Source: Bacteroidota bacterium
Lineage (GTDB): Bacteria; Bacteroidota; Bacteroidia; Bacteroidales; VadinHA17
Assembly: GCA_030618105.1 (NCBI GenBank)
Contig: JAUXED010000001.1
Location: 16,120 to 80,119 of the forward strand
DNA: 64,000 nucleotides
Direction of reading: 5' to 3'
The first letter of the stretch is position 1, and the number at the start of each line of letters is the position of its first letter. Positions 2,745 to 61,329 of the stretch are shown one piece after another. Position numbers and translations under genes: made by a program. Under the pieces are notes generated by a model that searched no databases, had not been told where the DNA came from, and worked only from the letters and a program-made list of their open reading frames with translations.

Positions 2745-3140
2745 TTATATCACTAAATGGATCTGGTAAAATTTAGACAATAAAAATATTATTATTATAA
2801 GATTAATTCCGGAAAAGAAATAATTAAATATAACCCTGTTGTTTTTAAAATTTCGTCGCAATAGTATCCCTATATTGGGTGCGAAAAGAGATAAAATCGT
2901 AAATACATAATTAAACTCATCGATTTTTTCTTTAATTTCAATCTCTAAAAACACCAGATAATAAAAGAATGATAATGCAATTAACAGGTAAGCCAGGTAG
3001 CTGAATTTTAGCATATATGTCGAATTCCTGCGCTTTTTATTTACTCTGAAGGGGCGTAAAAATACTGCCGCCAGCATAAAAATCATAGAAAACCCCGTAA
3101 TAACAAGTATGCGGGAAAGAATTTGTCCAAATTGATTCAT
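2745..3140 (-). CDS. Hypothetical small multi-pass membrane protein
   Basis: 131-aa ORF with about 4 hydrophobic segments. It is co-directional with, and 31 bp downstream of, the ROK kinase gene. I recognise no family. Confidence 0.4.
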   Translation of the reverse strand: MNQFGQILSRILVITGFSMIFMLAAVFLRPFRVNKKRRNSTYMLKFSYLAYLLIALSFFYYLVFLEIEIKEKIDEFNYVFTILSLFAPNIGILLRRNFKNNRVIFNYFFSGINLIIIIFLLSKFYQIHLVI

Positions 3141-3171
3141 TTTTCAGATGATTCAAAGACGAAAAAACTTT

Positions 3172-4164
3172 TTAAATTGAAATTTTCTTTGCATCGCCGT
3201 TTTCAATATTATTCCAAACAAGAGCACTGGCACCAAGAACAGCGGCGTTTTGAGAGTTCAATTTTGAAAGAAGCAATTTTACCTTCCCTTTATAAACTGA
3301 TAACAAATTTTCTTCCATATACTTGCGGGTTGGTTCAAATATCAAATCTTTTGCCAGTGCAAGTCCGCCAAAAAGGAAAATGGCTTCAGGATTAGTGTGA
3401 GCAACCACATCAGCAAGTTTAAAGCCGAGCATTCTGCCCGTATGTTCAAATGCTCTTATTGCAATTTTATCTCCTTCTTTGGCTGCATCGCTTATCATTG
3501 ATGCGTTTAGATCATTAAAGCTGACCCCCTTAAGAGGGCTGTCGTCTATCATATCTCCCATCAGTTTAAACAGGGTCCTTTTAATACCAGTAGCAGAAAC
3601 ATATGTTTCCAGGCATCCTTTCCTCCCGCATCCACATTGCCGGTTACTTTCTCCGGGTCTTATCGTTGTATGTCCCAGCTCCCCAGCGAAACCATCATGT
3701 CCGTATACCAATTCACCATTTACAACAAACCCGCTTCCTAAACCGGTACCTAATGTAATTACCACAAAATTTTTCATCCCTTTGGCTCCGCCATATATCA
3801 TCTCACCAATAGCTGCTGCATTTGCATCATTGGTCACTATTACCGGCAGGTTAGTAAATTCTTTGAAGAGATCAGCAAGCGGGATTATCCCTTTCCAGGG
3901 CAAATCGGCTGAATATTCTATTGTGCCTTTATTTATATTGCCCATCGGAGCTCCTATACCAATTCCTTCAACTATTATTCTATTGTTAAGGTTCCGCAGG
4001 CTAAGTCTTATTTTTTCATTCAGGGCTGCAAGAAAAACTTCTATTTCCTGATGGTCTTTTGTTGGAATTTGTCCCTGAGCCAGAAAATTTCCCTCTCTGT
4101 CCAGGATACCATAAATAGTATTTGTCCCTCCTATGTCTATGCCAATAGATACTTTCTTTTTCAC
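3172..4164 (-). CDS. ROK-family sugar kinase (glucokinase / amino-sugar kinase type), copy 1
   Basis: DIGGTN ATP-binding start, TNDANAAAIGE, LGTGLGSG, and the ROK zinc motif CGCGRKGCLE. Confidence 0.85.
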   Translation of the reverse strand: MKKKVSIGIDIGGTNTIYGILDREGNFLAQGQIPTKDHQEIEVFLAALNEKIRLSLRNLNNRIIVEGIGIGAPMGNINKGTIEYSADLPWKGIIPLADLFKEFTNLPVIVTNDANAAAIGEMIYGGAKGMKNFVVITLGTGLGSGFVVNGELVYGHDGFAGELGHTTIRPGESNRQCGCGRKGCLETYVSATGIKRTLFKLMGDMIDDSPLKGVSFNDLNASMISDAAKEGDKIAIRAFEHTGRMLGFKLADVVAHTNPEAIFLFGGLALAKDLIFEPTRKYMEENLLSVYKGKVKLLLSKLNSQNAAVLGASALVWNNIENGDAKKISI

Positions 4165-6251: not shown

Positions 6252-7478
6252 CTATCCTTGTTTTATTGTTTTATTTTCCAGTTCAACAAACTCGGGCAGT
6301 TTTCCAATTAACGGTTTAATATACTCAATGAATTTTTTATTGACGAAATTGCCTTTTTTATTGAAATATTCCCGAGGCATTGGCTTTGCTTTAATAGCTA
6401 CATCACTGAGTAATACTTTGGTATATTTAATTTTATATGGATTATCCGATTTCCTTTCCAGGGCGATCATATATCCCGACCGGCCTTTTTCAGCCAGCTT
6501 AACCGCTTCAATACCACAAATAAAAGCTTCTCTACGGTCAAGATTCACAGTTCTGTCAGCATCACACATAATAAGCGATTCTGTAATTTGAAATTCTCCC
6601 CTGTATCCATATTCATCTGCTATCATTCTATGAAGGTTCATCCCAACGCTTGATCCACCCATTGCTCCAAATTCAACATTATTAAATTTGTCCTGTGTCT
6701 TTGATGCGCTTACCGGGGTACCATCTTCAAATTTCAATCCTTCTCCGCAAACAACTGAAACCCAACCATATTTATCAATGCATAACCCTGCATCTTTCAG
6801 GAATTCTTCCTTGTTGAAATAAAATTCGGGGGTATATATTAAATGCGGCGCATCTTCTTTTTTTCGTTTTGCCAATGCTGTTGCCGCAGCAAGCCATCCC
6901 GCATTCCTTCCTATTGTCTGATAAATTACAAATTTATCCACCTTTTGCATATCCCGTGCAAGAATTCCCGCATGCATAACATTCAGAATATTTGTTCGTG
7001 CAGCAGAGGGAAAGCCCGGTGTATGGTCTGTGCCATACAGATCGTTATCAACAGTTTTGGGTATTCCTGTTCCAACTATTTCATAACCATTATCATTACA
7101 GTATGATTCAATTCTGTTGATAGTATCCATTGTATCATTCCCGCCAATCATAAAAAAGTACCTGATATTATATTTTTTAAGCATTTTCATTATTTTGGGA
7201 AAATCCTGCTGCTGTAATTTATGTCTTGATGAACCAAGAGCAGAAGAGGGAGTAGTCCTTAGCCCTGAGATAATTCTATCAGTCTGATTTCCAAGATCAA
7301 TAATTTTCTCCTGCATAAAACCCTCAATTCCGAATTTCATGCCATATATATCCGCAATTTTTCCCGATTTCCGGGTTTTTTCTATCACACCTGCAAGACT
7401 GGCATTTATAACAGCTGTGGGTCCGCCCGATTGTCCTATAATAGCATTGCTTTTCATGTTGATTTTTATTTTAGTCAA
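6252..7478 (-). CDS. 6-phosphofructokinase, PPi-type signature (GGND / PKTVDND)
   Basis: PFK family motifs SGGPTAVINA, IGGNDTMDT, IPKTVDNDL. Lys in PKTxDND and Asp after GG(N) match PPi-dependent enzymes. Confidence 0.85.
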   Translation of the reverse strand: MTKIKINMKSNAIIGQSGGPTAVINASLAGVIEKTRKSGKIADIYGMKFGIEGFMQEKIIDLGNQTDRIISGLRTTPSSALGSSRHKLQQQDFPKIMKMLKKYNIRYFFMIGGNDTMDTINRIESYCNDNGYEIVGTGIPKTVDNDLYGTDHTPGFPSAARTNILNVMHAGILARDMQKVDKFVIYQTIGRNAGWLAAATALAKRKKEDAPHLIYTPEFYFNKEEFLKDAGLCIDKYGWVSVVCGEGLKFEDGTPVSASKTQDKFNNVEFGAMGGSSVGMNLHRMIADEYGYRGEFQITESLIMCDADRTVNLDRREAFICGIEAVKLAEKGRSGYMIALERKSDNPYKIKYTKVLLSDVAIKAKPMPREYFNKKGNFVNKKFIEYIKPLIGKLPEFVELENKTIKQG

Positions 7479-23676: not shown

Positions 23677-24045
23677 ATGTTCATAAAATCCTTCTGGCCG
23701 GCTATTATCTGGGGAATTTTTATTTTCATTATATGTTCCTTTCCTGGTGATGACATTCCAAAATCGTTTATTATCAACATTCCTTTCGTAGATAAAATTA
23801 TTCACTTTTTTTTGTATTTCCTGCTGGCGATACTAATTATGTTTGGTACTTTAAAAAAAGCTAAAACCACTTTAACCATCCGGCATTTTCTTTTTACTTT
23901 TTTTATTTCTCTCTTCTATGGAGTTTTACTGGAGGCTTTGCAGGATTTTCTATTTATAATGCGAAGTGGTGATTTTATGGATATTGCAGCTAATGCAACC
24001 GGTTCTTTTGTTGGATTAGTAGTTTTCTATTTTTTTAGGAATTAA
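23677..24045 (+). CDS. VanZ-like family membrane protein
   Basis: 122 aa with 4 TM segments and a DKxxHFxxY-type motif (VDKIIHFFLYFLL). Confidence 0.6.
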   Translation: MFIKSFWPAIIWGIFIFIICSFPGDDIPKSFIINIPFVDKIIHFFLYFLLAILIMFGTLKKAKTTLTIRHFLFTFFISLFYGVLLEALQDFLFIMRSGDFMDIAANATGSFVGLVVFYFFRN

Positions 24046-24061
24046 TGATATTCTTTTTTAA

Positions 24062-24508
24062 TTATACGCTTTTTACAGGAATTTTTTTTATCCTTCTTTC
24101 GTGTCTTCCTCCGTCAAACTGAGTATTCAGAAATACTTTAATTATTGCAATTGCTTGTGCCTGATTAATAAATCTTCCCGGAAGAGCGCAAATATTTGCA
24201 TTATTGTGTGATCTTGCCAATTCCGCTATTTCAATATTCCAGCACAGAGCTGATCTTATTCCAGGATATTTATTAGCAACCATATTTATTCCGTTTCCAC
24301 TACCACAAACAGTTATTCCATAATCATATTCTTTATTTTCAACAGATCTTACCATAGGATGACCATAATCAGGATAATCTACACTTTCTTCCGAATCAGT
24401 TCCATAATCTCTTATTTTATATCCCTCCTTTATCAGGTATTCAATCAGTATTTCTTTTATATAAAATCCTGCATGATCACAAGTAATAGCAATATTTATT
24501 TTTTTCAT
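24062..24508 (-). CDS. rpiB: Ribose-5-phosphate isomerase B
   Basis: 148 aa. CDHAG, CGSGNGI and the RpiB/LacAB fold pattern. Confidence 0.9.
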   Translation of the reverse strand: MKKINIAITCDHAGFYIKEILIEYLIKEGYKIRDYGTDSEESVDYPDYGHPMVRSVENKEYDYGITVCGSGNGINMVANKYPGIRSALCWNIEIAELARSHNNANICALPGRFINQAQAIAIIKVFLNTQFDGGRHERRIKKIPVKSV

Positions 24509-24551
24509 TTTAAATAATTATTAATTTTTAAAATTTATTTTTCCTGCTTTA

Positions 24552-24733
24552 TTTACAATTTATGTATACCCATAAAGCATAATAAGTATACCGGTTTTGC
24601 GATCCGCCAGCTGGCGGAGAAGCAATCTTCCCTGGCTTTTCGTAAAGCTTATAATAGTCTATTTATTTGACATTCTGGTTGTTTTTGGTAGTTTACTTCG
24701 TCGTTTCACTCCTCGCAAAATCTTTTTTCAACC
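24552..24733 (-). mobile_element. ~182-bp MITE-like palindromic element, full copy 1 (inverted relative to copy 2)
   Basis: Its reverse complement aligns by eye end-to-end with 36897-37078. Shared features are the GATTTTGCGA / TCGCAAAAYC arms, GAAGCAATCT / AGATTGCTTC inner arms and the TCCGCCAGCTGGCGGA palindrome. Confidence 0.75.
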
Positions 24734-25119
24734 AATAAAATCCATTATTAATAATATGTTCATTATTTGTTAAATTAGATAAATAAAAATTTATTAAATA
24801 TTTTTCTTTATCATTTATTAATAAAAAAAATGTTTTATCAAAAAAAAGTTATTTACTAAATAACGCCATAAAATGAACAAAAATTTTAAATTTTTTATAA
24901 AATATTTATTAAATTATAACTTATTATTTTCCTTTCAACAGTTGTTAATTTTTATAATAATACATTGAATCACAACCTGTTTTTTTTGTAATATTGTTGA
25001 AATTTTGTTCCTAACTTTTTAAAAACATAATATACAACAATTATGTATATTATTTTTTAACACAATTAACAATACATTATTAATAACATAAATAATAATT
25101 AAATATATAATATATTAAT

Positions 25120-34376: not shown

Positions 34377-34422
34377 GTGAGGAAATGAGGAGAAGAAAAA
34401 CACGCTTTTATATAATGAAATG

Positions 34423-34480
34423 GGATTTTGCGAGGAACGAAGTGACGAAGCAATCTACCAAAACAACAAGAATAATAAAT
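34423..34480 (+). mobile_element. Partial (left-arm) copy of the 182-bp element
   Basis: GGATTTTGCGAGGAACGAAGTGACGAAGCAATCTACCAAAACAACAAGAAT matches the left half of the copies at 36897 and 24733 (reverse complement). Confidence 0.65.
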
Positions 34481-34949: not shown

Positions 34950-34975
34950 AGTATAAACAACCCGTTCTTCAGTTT

Positions 34976-35021
34976 GCCCGCCCGCCTGACCGGACGGGCA
35001 GGGACGGGCCGACTGCCGACT
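34976..35021 (+). repeat. GC-rich 24-mer copy 3 followed by a GCCGACT word, downstream of dut
   Basis: 34980-35003 is identical to 1187-1210. Confidence 0.85.
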
Positions 35022-35067
35022 TAAAAACGAAATAATAATGAAGTTTATCATTTTAATGTTACAATAT

Positions 35068-36855
35068 ATGAAGAGAGAAAGGAAAATAGCATTTGGATTA
35101 TTGATTTTAACTGTTTTGCTTACAGGATGCTTAGGAAAAGAGTATCCTAAAAAGACAAAGGGAGATGAAAAAGCAGTAAAGATTGAAGAAAGGGATACAG
35201 AATATAGATATTTTTTCGCTGAAGGGATAAAGCAAAAAATGCTTGGAAATTTAGGACAAGCAGTAAGATATTTTGAAAAGGCGATGGAGCTTAATAAAAA
35301 AAGTTCAGCTGGTTGTTATGAGTTATCAAGTATTTATACAATAACAAGAAATTATAACGAAGCAATTAAATATGCCGGAAGAGCGGAAAAACTGGACGAG
35401 AAGAATATTTGGTATAAATTACATCTTGGTAATTTATATCATATTACAAAAAAAGTTGATAGTACAATAGTAATATATGAAAAAATATGTGAAAATTACC
35501 CTGATAGAAATGATTTAGCTTTTAATCTAAGTGAATTATATAAAGAAAAGGGAGAAAAAGAAAAGGCATTAAGAATATATGAAAAATTAGAAGAGAGGGT
35601 TGGGATAAACAAACACGTGGGACTGGCGAAGGAAGATATTTATGAAAAAGAAGGAAAATTCGAATTGGCGAAAAATGAATTGGATAAATTGTTGAGAATA
35701 TATAAAAATGATGTGAATATTATGGGTGTACTGGCAGAATTATATCATAATAACGGATATGATGATAAAGCAAAAGAGACATATGAAAAAATGTTAATGA
35801 TTGAACCAGATAAATACAACACAAAGGTTTCATTATTAGGGTATTATAGAAAAAAGAATGAATACACAAAAGTTTTTGAAATTGTAAGAGAAATTATAGA
35901 AAATAGTGAGATAAAGGTTAATGAGAAAGTACAAATGATGTTGTCGTTCATATCAAACCAAGAGGAAATGAGAAACTATATAACAAATATTGAACTATTT
36001 ATTAGAAAACTTGAAGAACAATACCCGGATGACCATAAAGTAAAAGCAATAGCTGCAGATTTGTGCATAAGGACAGGTAAATTGGAGGAAGCAAGAAACA
36101 AGTTAAAATATATAATAGAAAAGGGTAAAGGGAATATTGTTTTATGGGAGCAGTTTCTGCTAATTGAAAATAGCATGGGAAATTATTCAGAGCTTTATAT
36201 GGAGAGTGAGAGAGCTATAAAAATTTACCCGGAAAGACCAACATTTTTTCTGTTAAAAGGAATTTCGGCAAGTGAGTTGAAGAAATATGAAATATCAATT
36301 AAAGCACTGGAAGAAGGGTTGAAATTCGTGAAAAATGACAATCAATTAATAATACAGTTTTATTTACTAATAGGAGATGGTTACAGAAGTATGGGTTTGC
36401 ACAAGAAATCGGATGAAGCAATGGAAAAGGCTCTGGAAATTGATTCAGAAAACCAAATTGTATTAAATAATTATGCATACTATTTATCCGAGAGAGGGTG
36501 CCGGTTGAGGAAAGCCCTTAAAATGAGTGGTATATGTATAAAAACGGAGCCAATAAATGCAATATATTTAGATACATATGGTTGGATACTTTTTAAAATG
36601 GGCAAAACGAATGAGGCAAAAGTATATTTGGAAAAAGCAATGAATAATTCCGGGGTAAACGATCCGGAAATAACAGAACATTATGGAGATATACTTTATG
36701 AGATGAAAGAATATACAAGAGCTGCTGAAACCTGGAAAGATGCAATTATTTTGGGTGGAGAAAAGATAAAAATTGAAAAGAAAATTAATGAAGCGAAAGA
36801 AAAGAAAAAAGGTCAAAAGTCGAAGGGCCAAAGAGTAGAAGGAGTAAGAGATTAG
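35068..36855 (+). CDS. TPR-repeat lipoprotein
   Basis: I prefer the ATG at 35068 (MKRERKIAFGLLILTVLLTGC lipobox) over the track start at 35038. Multiple TPR units. The C-terminal KKGQKSKGQRVEGVRD is read from purine-rich repeat DNA. Confidence 0.75.
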   Translation: MKRERKIAFGLLILTVLLTGCLGKEYPKKTKGDEKAVKIEERDTEYRYFFAEGIKQKMLGNLGQAVRYFEKAMELNKKSSAGCYELSSIYTITRNYNEAIKYAGRAEKLDEKNIWYKLHLGNLYHITKKVDSTIVIYEKICENYPDRNDLAFNLSELYKEKGEKEKALRIYEKLEERVGINKHVGLAKEDIYEKEGKFELAKNELDKLLRIYKNDVNIMGVLAELYHNNGYDDKAKETYEKMLMIEPDKYNTKVSLLGYYRKKNEYTKVFEIVREIIENSEIKVNEKVQMMLSFISNQEEMRNYITNIELFIRKLEEQYPDDHKVKAIAADLCIRTGKLEEARNKLKYIIEKGKGNIVLWEQFLLIENSMGNYSELYMESERAIKIYPERPTFFLLKGISASELKKYEISIKALEEGLKFVKNDNQLIIQFYLLIGDGYRSMGLHKKSDEAMEKALEIDSENQIVLNNYAYYLSERGCRLRKALKMSGICIKTEPINAIYLDTYGWILFKMGKTNEAKVYLEKAMNNSGVNDPEITEHYGDILYEMKEYTRAAETWKDAIILGGEKIKIEKKINEAKEKKKGQKSKGQRVEGVRD

Positions 36856-36896
36856 AGGTGAGAATAGGGAGGGAACAGTTTTAACCAGAGTTTAAA

Positions 36897-37078
36897 GTTT
36901 GAAAAAGGATTTTGCGAGGAGCGAAGCGACGAAGCAATCTCACAAGAACAACTGGGATGCCAAAGCAATAGACTGTCTTGAACTTTACGAAAAGTCTTGA
37001 AAGATTGCTTCTCCGCCAGCTGGCGGATCGCAAAATCCGTATACTTTTTATGGTTTAAAGATATACATAAATTGTAAA
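36897..37078 (+). mobile_element. ~182-bp MITE-like palindromic element, full copy 2, ending 7 bp before the DUF4292 gene ATG
   Basis: See 24552-24733. It sits inside the conserved TPR-DUF4292 gene pair. Confidence 0.75.
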
Positions 37079-37084
37079 CGAAAC

Positions 37085-37903
37085 ATGAAATATAGGAAGA
37101 TAAAAGCATTAATTATTTGTATATGTTTAATATATACAGGATTGCCGGGATGTAAAACTACAAAAAGCAGTGTTGGTTTATTTATTGAAAGCAATGAAGA
37201 AAGTGTAGAAAGGGTTAGGGAAAGTCTTATTGAAAACAAGATAGAGGTTAAAAATATTTGGGTAAAAAAATATAATTGTGAGATAAGAGAAAATTGGAAA
37301 AGAAAAGATTTTTATGGGGATATAAAAATTGTAAAAGGCGAAAAAATATTGATAACTGTTAAAAGCGGATTAGGAATAGAAACTGCAAGAGTATTGCTAA
37401 CAAAAGATTCTGTGAAAATTGTTGATAGAATGAATAAGGAGGTTTTTTGTGGAGGGTATGAGGAAATGAAAAGATATTTTGGTTTGATAGATTGTTATAA
37501 AAAGGCAGAAGATTTAATGATAAGCAATAATTCGATTGTTATAGAAGAGATGGGAAATAAATACGGAAATAAATATGAAATAAAAAAGGGAGAGAAGAAG
37601 GATGAAATAATTATTAGTGAAAAAGGGGTCAAAACGACTGGAAATAAGCAATTTACTATAAGAGTGGATAATTACAATATAGTTGAATACAGCGAAGAAA
37701 ATGGAAAAAATGAAATGCTGAAAGTTAATTATTTGAATTGGATTGATTTTGGAAAAATAAAATTTCCGGAAGAGTTAAAAATTGAAATACATAAAGGCGG
37801 TGAGAAAAGGATATCAATATTAAAGTATGAGAGAATTGAAATTGATGGAAAGATGAATACTAAATTCAGAATACCTGATGGATATAAAGTAATAAAATTA
37901 TGA
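37085..37903 (+). CDS. DUF4292-like (LolB-fold) lipoprotein
   Basis: Lipobox LPGC. Sits in the conserved Bacteroidota position between the TPR protein and the M23 peptidase. Overlaps the next gene by 4 nt (ATGA). Confidence 0.6.
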   Translation: MKYRKIKALIICICLIYTGLPGCKTTKSSVGLFIESNEESVERVRESLIENKIEVKNIWVKKYNCEIRENWKRKDFYGDIKIVKGEKILITVKSGLGIETARVLLTKDSVKIVDRMNKEVFCGGYEEMKRYFGLIDCYKKAEDLMISNNSIVIEEMGNKYGNKYEIKKGEKKDEIIISEKGVKTTGNKQFTIRVDNYNIVEYSEENGKNEMLKVNYLNWIDFGKIKFPEELKIEIHKGGEKRISILKYERIEIDGKMNTKFRIPDGYKVIKL

Positions 37904-49622: not shown

Positions 49623-49806
49623 ACAAATGTTTATGATATCATACCTGCCGGCATAAACCTATTTATAGATAAAACAAAAGGCAAAAATAACAGGTGTCAA
49701 AAGGTGAATTAATTTTATTTGCTCAAAGATAGGAAAATATATATTAGTCGGTTTTAGGTCAGTAATTTATTGTAACGGAAGTTTAAAAATGCATAATAAA
49801 TATACT

Positions 49807-49860
49807 GATTTTGCGATCCGCCGGTTAGCGGAGAAGCAATCTTTCATGACTTTTCGTAAA
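49807..49860 (-). mobile_element. Partial (right-arm) copy of the 182-bp element, with variant palindrome TCCGCCGGTTAGCGGA
   Basis: GATTTTGCGATCCGCC..GCGGAGAAGCAATCTTTCATGACTTTTCGTAAA matches 24595-24647. The left flank GCATAATAAATATAC is also shared. Confidence 0.65.
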
Positions 49861-49923
49861 CCAGGGATTCTCCCGGAAACCATAAATATGATAACTCTCG
49901 TTGTTTTAGAATTAACATATGTA

Positions 49924-60225: not shown

Positions 60226-61329
60226 ATGAGCAACAAAAAATTTAGTTTTCAGAAATTTATTGAGGATTCAAAAAACGCTATTTTGAATCCCAAAGAGCAT
60301 TTTGCTACACTAAGTACTACCGGTGGCTTTGGCGAACCGGTAATTAAAGCGGTTATTTATGGGTTTATCGCAGGTGTTTTTGTTTTATTGTGGAGTCTAC
60401 TCAATATCTCCGGCGGGACAGGGCTTGGGAGTTTATTTGGCGGAGCTGTTGGTATAATGGCTTTTATAGGTTCAATTATAGGTGCCCTTATTGGGCTGTT
60501 TATAGGCGGAGTTATTGTATTAATTATTTCTTCTATTTGCAGTGGATCAAATGATTATGAAGCAAACGTAAGGGTGGTAGCAGCGATGATGGTACTTACC
60601 CCTATTAATGCTTTTTTGAATGTATTCAATGGTGTTAGCCCGGTGCTTGGGATATTATTTGGATTAGTAGTAAACCTTTATGGGTTATGGATGCTGTACC
60701 ACGCACTTAACCAGACACTGAAGGCAAAAGAGGAAACGTCAAAAATAATTGCAATAGTTTTAGGGGCTTTGGTTTTGTTATTTGCAATTATTGGTTTTGG
60801 TACACGAAAGAAATTGCGTAGTTTGGAGACAAGGTTTGGAGATTATGAAAAGATATCAAAAGATTATGAAAAAGCTGCATTAAAAATGGCTGAGAACTAT
60901 GAGGAAGTAGCAAAAGAATTAGTAGAAGGAATAGCAGAAGGAATAGCAGAAACAACTGAAGAAATGACAGAAGAAATATCAGAAATGTATGGGGGTACCG
61001 AAGAGGGTTATGAATTTGAAATGGCAAACGGTGAAACAGTGAAAAAAATTAACCCTGTTTCAGTAACCATGGCATTAAAAAGTCTTGATGAAGACAACAA
61101 CTTTGCTGTATTAAGTAAAGGTGATTTCTTTATACAAACTGCTCTGGAGGAGAATGGTTATGTTGTTGAATACAACGATGATTCAGGATACTACAGAAGT
61201 GTTGAATCAGATATACCCTATAAAAAAGTTGTTGCTATATTCATGGGATTTATTAATGAAGAAACTTCGTGGAAGGAGATAGTAGAATGGGAAGCAGCAA
61301 CATGGACTGTAGCAAAATGGGGGGAATAG
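60226..61329 (+). CDS. Yip1-like polytopic membrane protein with acidic linker and C-terminal soluble domain
   Basis: 367 aa: ~5 TM (G/I/L-rich), an E-rich repeat EGIAEGIAETTEEMTEEISE, then a ~110-aa C-terminal domain. Family assignment is tentative. Confidence 0.5.
   Translation: MSNKKFSFQKFIEDSKNAILNPKEHFATLSTTGGFGEPVIKAVIYGFIAGVFVLLWSLLNISGGTGLGSLFGGAVGIMAFIGSIIGALIGLFIGGVIVLIISSICSGSNDYEANVRVVAAMMVLTPINAFLNVFNGVSPVLGILFGLVVNLYGLWMLYHALNQTLKAKEETSKIIAIVLGALVLLFAIIGFGTRKKLRSLETRFGDYEKISKDYEKAALKMAENYEEVAKELVEGIAEGIAETTEEMTEEISEMYGGTEEGYEFEMANGETVKKINPVSVTMALKSLDEDNNFAVLSKGDFFIQTALEENGYVVEYNDDSGYYRSVESDIPYKKVVAIFMGFINEETSWKEIVEWEAATWTVAKWGE

Follow-up and report, generated by a model that had tools for sequence, protein, structure and literature searches.

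A palindromic intergenic repeat of a Bacteroidota genome, probably a gene-less descendant of ssn nuclease cassettes

The 64,000-nt stretch analyzed here (the window), from contig JAUXED010000001.1 of a Bacteroidota bacterium, harbors a palindromic intergenic element of about 200 bp which appears to derive from cassettes built around ssn, a small GIY-YIG nuclease gene. A preliminary description, made from the letters of the window alone, had recognized two full copies, 36897-37078 (+) and the reverse complement of 24552-24733, and had held these stretches to match over their full length. They do, in a gapless end-to-end alignment with 85% column identity including flanks, and the small indels also claimed between them are not needed. 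All motifs listed at that time were recovered, comprising both pairs of complementary decamers (GATTTTGCGA/TCGCAAAATC and GAAGCAATCT/AGATTGCTTC), the perfect 16-bp palindrome TCCGCCAGCTGGCGGA (in copy 1 at 24603-24618), the shared tail and CTTTACGAAAAG; the spacing to the start codons (6 nt to DUF4292, 43 nt to rpiB) and the identities of these two neighbors were likewise correct. The count of copies has to be extended, since two partial copies are also present in the window (Table 1). The homology reaches ~20-25 nt further left than the start first given (TTTTAACCAGAGTTTAAAGTTTGAAAAAGG), as shown by a fifth copy (L254), which adjoins a collagen-repeat gene in a different metagenome, includes the first ~27 nt of the tail and was reached via a spurious open reading frame (ORF). 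The 24-mer of the right arm had no chance match in 100 shuffles of the window, and a tRNA/tmRNA search found none.

Table 1. Copies of the element in the window and the parts of copy 2
Feature	Position	Strand	Remarks
Copy 1, full element	24552..24752	-	Divergent spacer between rpiB (start 24508, -) and nadA (25120, +)
Copy 2, full element	36878..37078	+	Between tetratricopeptide repeat (TPR) gene (stop 36855) and DUF4292 gene (ATG 37085)
Copy 3, left arm and first part of core only	34422..34480	+	Upstream of dut (ATG 34515)
Copy 4, core, right arm (P4 variant TCCGCTAACCGGCGGA) and start of tail, without left arm	49785..49910	-	Spacer between polyprenyl synthase gene (start 49622, -) and ArsR-type helix-turn-helix (HTH) gene (49963, +)
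Left extension (TTTTAACCAGAGTTTAAAGTTTGAAAAAG)	36878..36906	+	Conserved in L254, partly in copy 1
Left arm, hairpin-repeat unit	36907..36940	+	P1 5' strand, mini-hairpin, P3 5' strand
P1 5' strand GGATTTTGCGA	36907-36917	+	
Mini-hairpin P2 GCGAAGC	36921-36927	+	
P3 5' strand GAAGCAATCT	36931-36940	+	
Core, read as remnant of ssn-type GIY-YIG gene	36941..37001	+	Opens with 16-nt leader
Right arm	37002..37038	+	P3 3' strand, P4, P1 3' strand
P3 3' strand AGATTGCTTC	37002-37011	+	
P4, 16-bp palindrome TCCGCCAGCTGGCGGA	37012-37027	+	
P1 3' strand TCGCAAAATCC	37028-37038	+	
Tail GTATACTTTTTATGGTTTAAAGATATACATAAATTGTAAA, 40 nt	37039..37078	+	Common to copy 1; first ~20-27 nt also in copy 4 and L254

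The arms had been described as mutually complementary and able to form a long hairpin, and they do pair with one another in both the minimum-energy and the centroid folds, far better than in shuffled sequences (z = -4.8 and -3.0 for RNA folding of the two full copies; z = -4.6 for DNA folding of the extended copy 2). The predicted fold of both full copies is a four-way junction, with P1 formed by GGATTTTGCGA and TCGCAAAATCC, P3 by GAAGCAATCT and AGATTGCTTC, and with P2 and P4 as the two hairpins within the arms, which are separated by a spacer of 61 nt. Mini-hairpin P2 covaries across the copies (GCGAAGC, GTGAAAC, ACGAAGT), and the left extension is weakly complementary to the right tail, with the outer pairs being present in the DNA minimum-energy fold. 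Spurious ORFs run across the copies, one of 85 aa at 36852-37109 (-) and one of 58 aa at 24597-24773 (+), and a JGI metagenome lists an equivalent ORF of 52 aa as a hypothetical protein (P0032).

The arms belong to a repeat family with the arm core TTGCGAGGAGCGAAGCGACGAAGCAATC / GATTGCTTC...TCGCAA and canonical arms of the type CGTCATTGCGAGG. Its left-arm core TTGCGAGGARYGAARYGACGAAG, a 23-mer, occurs in at least 120 metagenome contigs from soils, sediments, guts and springs, and about 100 of the 125 occurrences listed have a matching right arm within ~30-120 nt. A typical dimer of this family reads GTCA-TTGCGAGGAGCGAAGCGACGAAGCAATCCAG, a 10-30-nt loop, CTGGATTGCTTC, a variable hairpin and CTCGCAATGAC; across the wider family, the inner hairpin of either arm is hypervariable, both in sequence and in how long it is (294 different left inserts, 5-45 nt, were counted), and the inserts tend to fold. 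We built a covariance model (R1) solely from 68 foreign elements, i.e. dimers of other organisms, and ran it over the window, where the top hit was copy 2 (32.3 bits, E=3.3e-6, over 36913-37025), followed by copy 1 (19.3 bits, E=0.0087) and copy 3 (15 bits, E=0.12), with no further significant match in the 64 kb beyond copies of the element. As a model trained on foreign dimers places the copies of the window at the top, the window element is a divergent member of the pan-bacterial family of TTGCGAGG...GCAATC dimers. The divergence lies in: 1) the spacer, ~61 nt vs. ~20 nt in the foreign dimers; 2) a P4 of 16 nt; 3) the outer head, GGATTTTGCGA vs. canonical GTCATTGCGA, which has changed concordantly on both arms and in all copies. 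Exact scans gave no match for the right arm with P4 in genome and metagenome contigs, and none in viral contigs for either the 3' core with right arm or the left arm with its ATTTT head, so that the window subfamily is rare or absent in the genome, metagenome and viral collections scanned; a blastn search of plasmids with the element returned only a 28-nt left-arm match in Methylosinus.

Two side observations concern relatives and look-alikes of these dimers. Long tandem arrays of short TTGCGAGG-type dimers are present at L103 (2190-2700), L160, L182, L235 and L253, where they yield long spurious ORFs with repeating peptides such as DEAIQ...SLRHCEERS. In the window itself, the short palindrome ATAATTGCAA-N27-TTGCAATTAT at 60745-60791 matched R1 weakly on both strands (10.7 bits, E=1.5) and is probably unrelated to the element.

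The preliminary description had proposed a search for a transposase with matching terminal inverted repeats; instead, the gene nested between arms of this family encodes a GIY-YIG nuclease of ~95 aa. At L103 a left arm, a 95-aa GIY-YIG ORF (Pfam PF01541, E=1.3e-13) and a right arm follow each other, and L009 and L113 display the same arrangement with related arms. As a falsifiable test, we scanned 185,579 genomes, one per GTDB species, for GACGAAGCAATC-N{295,325}-GATTGCTTC, and found arms ~310 nt apart at no fewer than 120 loci across very many phyla, those listed being Planctomycetota, Bacillota, Patescibacteria, Omnitrophota, Spirochaetota, Chloroflexota, Acidobacteriota, Bacteroidota (Chryseobacterium, Pedobacter), Campylobacterota and all proteobacterial classes. 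Among the 120 loci listed, 59 carry a ~95-aa GIY-YIG ORF exactly between the arms (50 full-length, 93-102 aa) and most of the remaining 61 consist of short dimers arrayed in tandem; a transposase, a RAYT (tyrosine transposase associated with repetitive extragenic palindromes [REPs]) or an IS200-like ORF was found between the arms in none of them. The layout of the cassette is GTCAT head, TTGCGAG, variable mini-hairpin, GACGAAGCAATC, gene, GATTGCTTC, variable mini-hairpin and CTCGCAATGAC. The geometry is constant across 49 full-length cassettes: the ORF starts 4-31 nt past GAAGCAATC and, in 48 of the 49, stops -1 to 14 nt ahead of GATTGCTTC, and 30 have [DNE]LY among their last 8 residues. At the level of the arm family, the repeats thus bracket a single-domain GIY-YIG gene, as judged by the Pfam PF01541 match and by the 48% identity (E=8e-22) that the cargo protein shares with the SsnA homologue of N. 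gonorrhoeae. On annotated plasmids (Rhizobium, Shinella, Azospirillum, Neisseria, Photobacterium), genes of the GIY-YIG nuclease family are nested in or flanked by GTCAT...ATGAC hairpin repeats. A PDB sequence search with the cargo protein found no solved relative.

By protein likeness, the literature identifies this cargo as a putative member of the Ssn family of single-strand DNA nucleases (PMC11893778). Chenal et al. (Nat Commun 2025) described Ssn as ~94-aa single-domain GIY-YIG proteins (cd10448) that act as site-specific nucleases, binding a hairpin repeat (NTS, CGTCATTCCCGCGMAVGCGGGAATCYRG) on single-stranded DNA only and cutting a few nt upstream of its head; for SsnA of N. meningitidis, cleavage depends chiefly on the GTC triplet (PMC11893778). 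Ssn-related motifs (SRM), a class to which the Neisseria NTS/dRS3 repeat belongs, were found near 71% of ssn homologues, and on both sides in 42%; the NTS-ssnA-NTS layout resembles an insertion sequence, and the Neisseria system modulates transformation (PMC11893778). A 2006 paper on GIY-YIG phylogenomics does not mention these repeats. As a separate observation, an ssn-like GIY-YIG gene with complete hairpin-repeat dimers on both sides separates sufB from sufC, which normally share an operon, on plasmid AZO_p3 of Azospirillum lipoferum 4B (L125, 255106-256190).

Set against these cassettes, the part of the element first described as a variable core appears to be largely what remains of a GIY-YIG gene. 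In copy 2 the leader of the core is followed by ATG CCA AAG CAA TAG (36957-36971), i.e. M-P-K-Q-stop, 16 nt after the left arm; since proteins of the family most often begin with M-[NDSE]-K-Q-Y (modal MNKQY), the TAG is one change away from a Tyr codon. The core ends with GAA CTT TAC GAA AAG TCT TGA (36980-37000), i.e. ELYEKS-stop, 2 nt before the right arm, vs. C-termini such as ...DLYEEL, ...DLYEKI and ...NLYEKI in the family. Both ends fit the modal termini as well as the arm distances measured in the full-length cassettes. The six frames of the 64 kb contain no more than two instances of the pattern [LV]Y[ED][EKDQ]x-stop, at 36983 (+) and 49861 (-), and each instance directly precedes a right arm, the version in copy 4 being VYEKS-stop at 49861. 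The equivalent in L254, GAG CTT TAT GAA AAA CCA TGA, differs from copy 2 by three synonymous changes and one replacement. A spacer of ~60 nt that keeps the leader, the first 4 codons and the last 6 codons plus stop is what would be expected of an internal deletion removing roughly codons 6-89. We consider it probable, with good though not full confidence, that the element descends from an ssn cassette by internal deletion and is non-autonomous; it is a decayed, head-altered variant of a published kind (CGTC-tagged REPs, Ssn/SRM cassettes) and not a new class. The earlier view of a non-autonomous MITE (miniature inverted-repeat transposable element)-like element holds to the extent that the element is multi-copy, non-coding, palindromic and unstable, and that neither the window encodes a transposase nor the element an enzyme, but its partner is not a transposase.

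The instability is evident from relatives, the syntenic contigs of which were reached via DUF4292 homologues. At the TPR-DUF4292 site the element is present in a 97% relative (L130, 5270-5442) and absent in relatives at 86% (L132), 76% (L131, an NCBI metagenome-assembled genome named 'Bacteroidetes bacterium') and 65% (L133), all of which keep the gene pair with spacers of 103-474 nt; this is the behavior of unstable, lineage-specific DNA. Window and L130 are identical over 231 nt save for one single-nucleotide polymorphism and a clean replacement of P4 (TCCGCCAGCTGGCGGA vs. ACTTCGT). Copy 3 is also present in L130, at 2546-2586. At the rpiB site of L256 (60-358; identical RpiB) only the right half is found, with a P4 of ACTTCAT and no recognizable left arm. 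The site of copy 4 has a longer core and a different P4 in L261, and in L259 and L260 the inner part of the element is replaced by ~125 nt of unrelated purine-rich sequence; all three contigs encode an identical flanking protein. The window strain has the 16-mer type of P4 at all three of its right arms. An ancient conserved leader, the scenario that by the preliminary description's own account would undo a mobile reading, is excluded because the element is absent at orthologous sites and structurally polymorphic among strains.

Purine-rich, low-complexity runs (GAGGTGAG, AAGTAAGAAG, GGGAGGGAA) follow the stop codons in many spacers of this Bacteroidota lineage, for example at 36856-36876 in the window, at 6726-6860 and 9530-9640 in L131, at 1-70 in L132 and in the polyprenyl-synthase/HTH spacer of L259 and L260, where the ~125-nt insert is of the same kind. 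The dut-TPR spacer also varies: in the window (34950-35037) it is 88 nt long with a GC-rich block gcccgcccgcctgaccggacgggcagggacgggcc, and in L130 (97% identical proteins; 3073-3440) it measures 368 nt with tandem CAGTCCA/CAGTC repeats. Around copy 1, at ~24000-25100, a spacer very rich in AT (GC 27% in 24-28 kb) separates the leftward rpiB from the rightward nadA, and both GC skew and AT skew change sign at this switch of gene orientation. A replication origin was considered for this switch and is not supported, because DnaA boxes are not enriched.

The element shares features with several known systems and departs from each of them. Di Nocera, De Gregorio and Rocco (BMC Genomics 2013) defined CGTC-tagged REPs by a CGTC head, a stem that opens with AT and a CCA tail; these repeats also form inverted dimers whose units lie 20-100 bp apart, include the Neisseria dRS3 and were reported in Bacteroidetes, Chlorobi, Spirochaetes and Proteobacteria (PMC3733652). 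They "apparently lack a dedicated transposase", and RAYT or IS200 genes bracketed by CGTC units were not found (PMC3733652). The canonical relatives of our element likewise start with CGTC/TGTC, have a stem starting from AT, end in CCA and form inverted dimers which can fold as one large stem-loop or as two hairpins and have no associated transposase. However, stems measure 8-9 bp and loops 4-5 nt in the four published families, sizes from which the canonical relatives depart, and the 2013 paper drew no link to GIY-YIG genes. The window copies deviate further, as their arms (GGATTTTGCGAGG...GCAATCTCA) have no CGTC tag, a CTC/CTA tail in place of CCA, and an outer stem of 4-5 bp accompanied by an internal loop and a mini-hairpin; as a dimer, with a 61-nt spacer and arms that pair into one large stem-loop, they do conform to the class. 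With the NTS-ssnA-NTS system the likeness consists of inverted hairpin-forming repeats, full-length relatives that bracket a ~95-aa GIY-YIG gene, the NTS head CGTCAT and the end AATCCAG in the canonical relatives, and many copies of which most are gene-less. In contrast to one stem of 8-9 bp, the inner part of the TTGCGAGG arms combines a stem of 5 bp with an internal loop and a mini-hairpin that varies. The window subfamily has neither the GTC head (GGATTTTGCGA instead) nor the CCAG end, both arms reading GGAT-TTTGC in place of CGTC-ATTGC, and it has an added outer inverted sequence and merely the termini of an ssn gene; the C directly after GCAAT is kept in the window arms.

The element can also be placed beside transposon-borne repeats. 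In REPINs (paired REPs) of RAYTs and in IS200/IS605 palindromes, paired inverted hairpin repeats far outnumber a single small gene that they bracket, and recognition is presumed to take place on single-stranded DNA, as for our element. In contrast, RAYTs are HUH tyrosine transposases rather than GIY-YIG nucleases, their repeats have a GTAG head which the window copies do not have, no RAYT gene was found in the 120 listed loci, and there is no sequence relationship. MITEs derived from insertion sequences similarly keep their ends and lose their interior except for a few codons at either end of the resident gene. Inverted repeats are present in our element too, but its parent-type elements carry a GIY-YIG gene, which is no known transposase; a target-site duplication was not seen, and ssn cassettes are not known to transpose.

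A number of results weigh against descent from an ssn cassette. The reading of the core as a gene remnant rests on about 10 codons, and a hidden Markov model (HMM) of the whole protein did not detect a remnant in the window; the best HMM hit in its six-frame translation (9.8 bits, E=0.15) is treated as spurious because it aligns a translation of right arm and tail to the middle of the protein. The 64 kb hold no intact ssn gene, tblastn and HMM giving only uvrC and noise. Full-length cassettes with the window-type head GGATTTTGCGA were not found in the searches made, and a consensus Ssn query with the termini of the window had no hit with MPKQ.../...LYEKS ends among its top 120, from what is a very large family. 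The published SRM search sequence, HGTCWYN(0-2)YYVSBRHN(0-5)WNVSBRGN(0-2)RNCYNB (PMC11893778), is absent from the window, from L130 and from the canonical TTGCGAGG...GCAATC arms, with all positive controls (L124, L125, L127, L128, L129) matching. The window arms have no GTC triplet, and as this triplet governs cleavage by N. meningitidis SsnA, any action of Ssn on them is putative. With the SRM motif failing and the GTC triplet lost, the element counts, in formal terms, as a divergent rather than a canonical member. At the sites compared, a target-site duplication is not definable, because the empty sites are too diverged.

An alternative view, in line with the outward promoter, 5' untranslated region (UTR) or regulatory hairpin suggested at the outset, is that the element acts as a cis-regulatory module (a mobile promoter, 5'-UTR or structured RNA leader) for the gene facing its tail. 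All four window copies do point the tail side at the nearest downstream start codon, copy 2 ends so close to the DUF4292 ATG that it must lie in the transcript or promoter region of that gene, the RNA folds strongly, a terminator-like hairpin is followed by a T-rich run at 37023-37049, and P4 of copy 4 keeps its pairing only by way of a G-T/G-U pair. However, the four-of-four orientation is weak evidence (p about 0.1), with two of the sites lying between divergent genes, and the downstream genes (rpiB, DUF4292, dut, polyprenyl synthase) are functionally unrelated. Promoter scans found no sigma-70-like site in the element and no Bacteroidota-type TAnnTTTG -7 motif in copies 1-3. The Rfam comparison proposed earlier for a riboswitch or small RNA matched no family: at gathering thresholds there were no hits in the whole window and only one tRNA in 12 loci with canonical elements, and relaxed thresholds (E<=10) over 36800-37150 gave only chance-level GA-cis and MIR8675 matches. 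In addition, orthologous DUF4292, dut and polyprenyl-synthase genes of relatives have no element or broken versions of it, and near-identical strains can do without P4 or the left arm. We regard a regulatory role as improbable. Given the 6-nt gap and the promoter scans, DUF4292 is probably co-transcribed with the TPR gene through the element, and copy 2 would then probably be an intercistronic hairpin in the TPR-DUF4292 transcript.

Alternatively, the element might be a classical MITE or REPIN, mobilized in trans by a DDE, IS200/IS605 or RAYT transposase, with the link to GIY-YIG being coincidental. Its long imperfect terminal inverted repeats, length of ~200 bp, intergenic position and multiple copies would suit this view, and REP/RAYT systems provide a precedent for hairpin repeats mobilized on single-stranded DNA (PMC3116915, PMC2817692). 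Against it stand the gene content of the 120 listed loci (GIY-YIG between the arms in 59, a transposase in none), the absence of a transposase from the window, repeats that do not have the GTAG head of RAYT-associated REPs, the reported absence of RAYT/IS200 genes flanked by CGTC units (PMC3733652), and the fact that no target-site duplication is evident; we consider it very unlikely. The AT-richness of the genome (GC 27-38%) and the abundance of low-complexity repeats in its spacers might have spoken for chance similarity, low complexity or a simple segmental duplication of an intergenic stretch. This explanation is refuted by arms that are GC-rich, specific and never matched in shuffles, by five sites in different gene contexts, and by a model from unrelated organisms that finds the window copies at E=3e-6.

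For the descendant of an ssn cassette that we favor, the following course may be envisaged. In the single-stranded state of DNA, each arm would fold on itself or the two arms would pair into the four-way junction; recognition and nicking by Ssn are taken over by analogy from Neisseria, Wolbachia and relatives. Copies may then be spread, homogenized or rearranged by nuclease-triggered or palindrome-triggered repair and recombination. Those in the present genome may now be passive relics or may be served in trans by an ssn gene outside the window, and their effects on neighboring genes would be incidental. A bolder proposal, which we hold to be possible and yet rather doubtful, is that Ssn cassettes are, or recently were, autonomous/non-autonomous mobile pairs whose 'transposase' is a 95-aa GIY-YIG single-strand nuclease. 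If this were true, the window copies would be MITE-like deletion derivatives from a Bacteroidota subfamily with a new head specificity (GGATTT vs. CGTCAT), and the swaps of P4 would be traces left at the repeat by gene conversion or by nuclease-triggered repair. The pan-bacterial TTGCGAGG...GCAATC repeat would be a large, previously unlisted class of Ssn targets, missed by the SRM motif, and the source of countless spurious ORFs of the 'VIARSEATKQS / RLLRRFAPRND' type.

For annotation, blocks of ~200 bp such as these, together with their far more numerous short relatives, are best masked as dimers of Ssn-type hairpin repeats and not taken for promoters, riboswitches or small ORFs, as exemplified by the spurious 85-aa ORF that overlaps copy 2. 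Ssn and SRM were characterized only in 2025, and three results, taken together, make the mobility of ssn cassettes and its mode testable: 1) a very widespread arm type is missed by the SRM motif and yet, in dozens of phyla, has ssn genes lying between its arms with a fixed geometry; 2) gene-less copies can be internal-deletion derivatives with the first and last codons of the gene, the classic signature of an autonomous/non-autonomous pair; 3) copies at fixed sites differ by clean replacement of a mini-hairpin between near-identical strains. An arm class missed by SRM, deletion derivatives that retain the gene termini, and mini-hairpin swaps may thus be useful to those working on Ssn.

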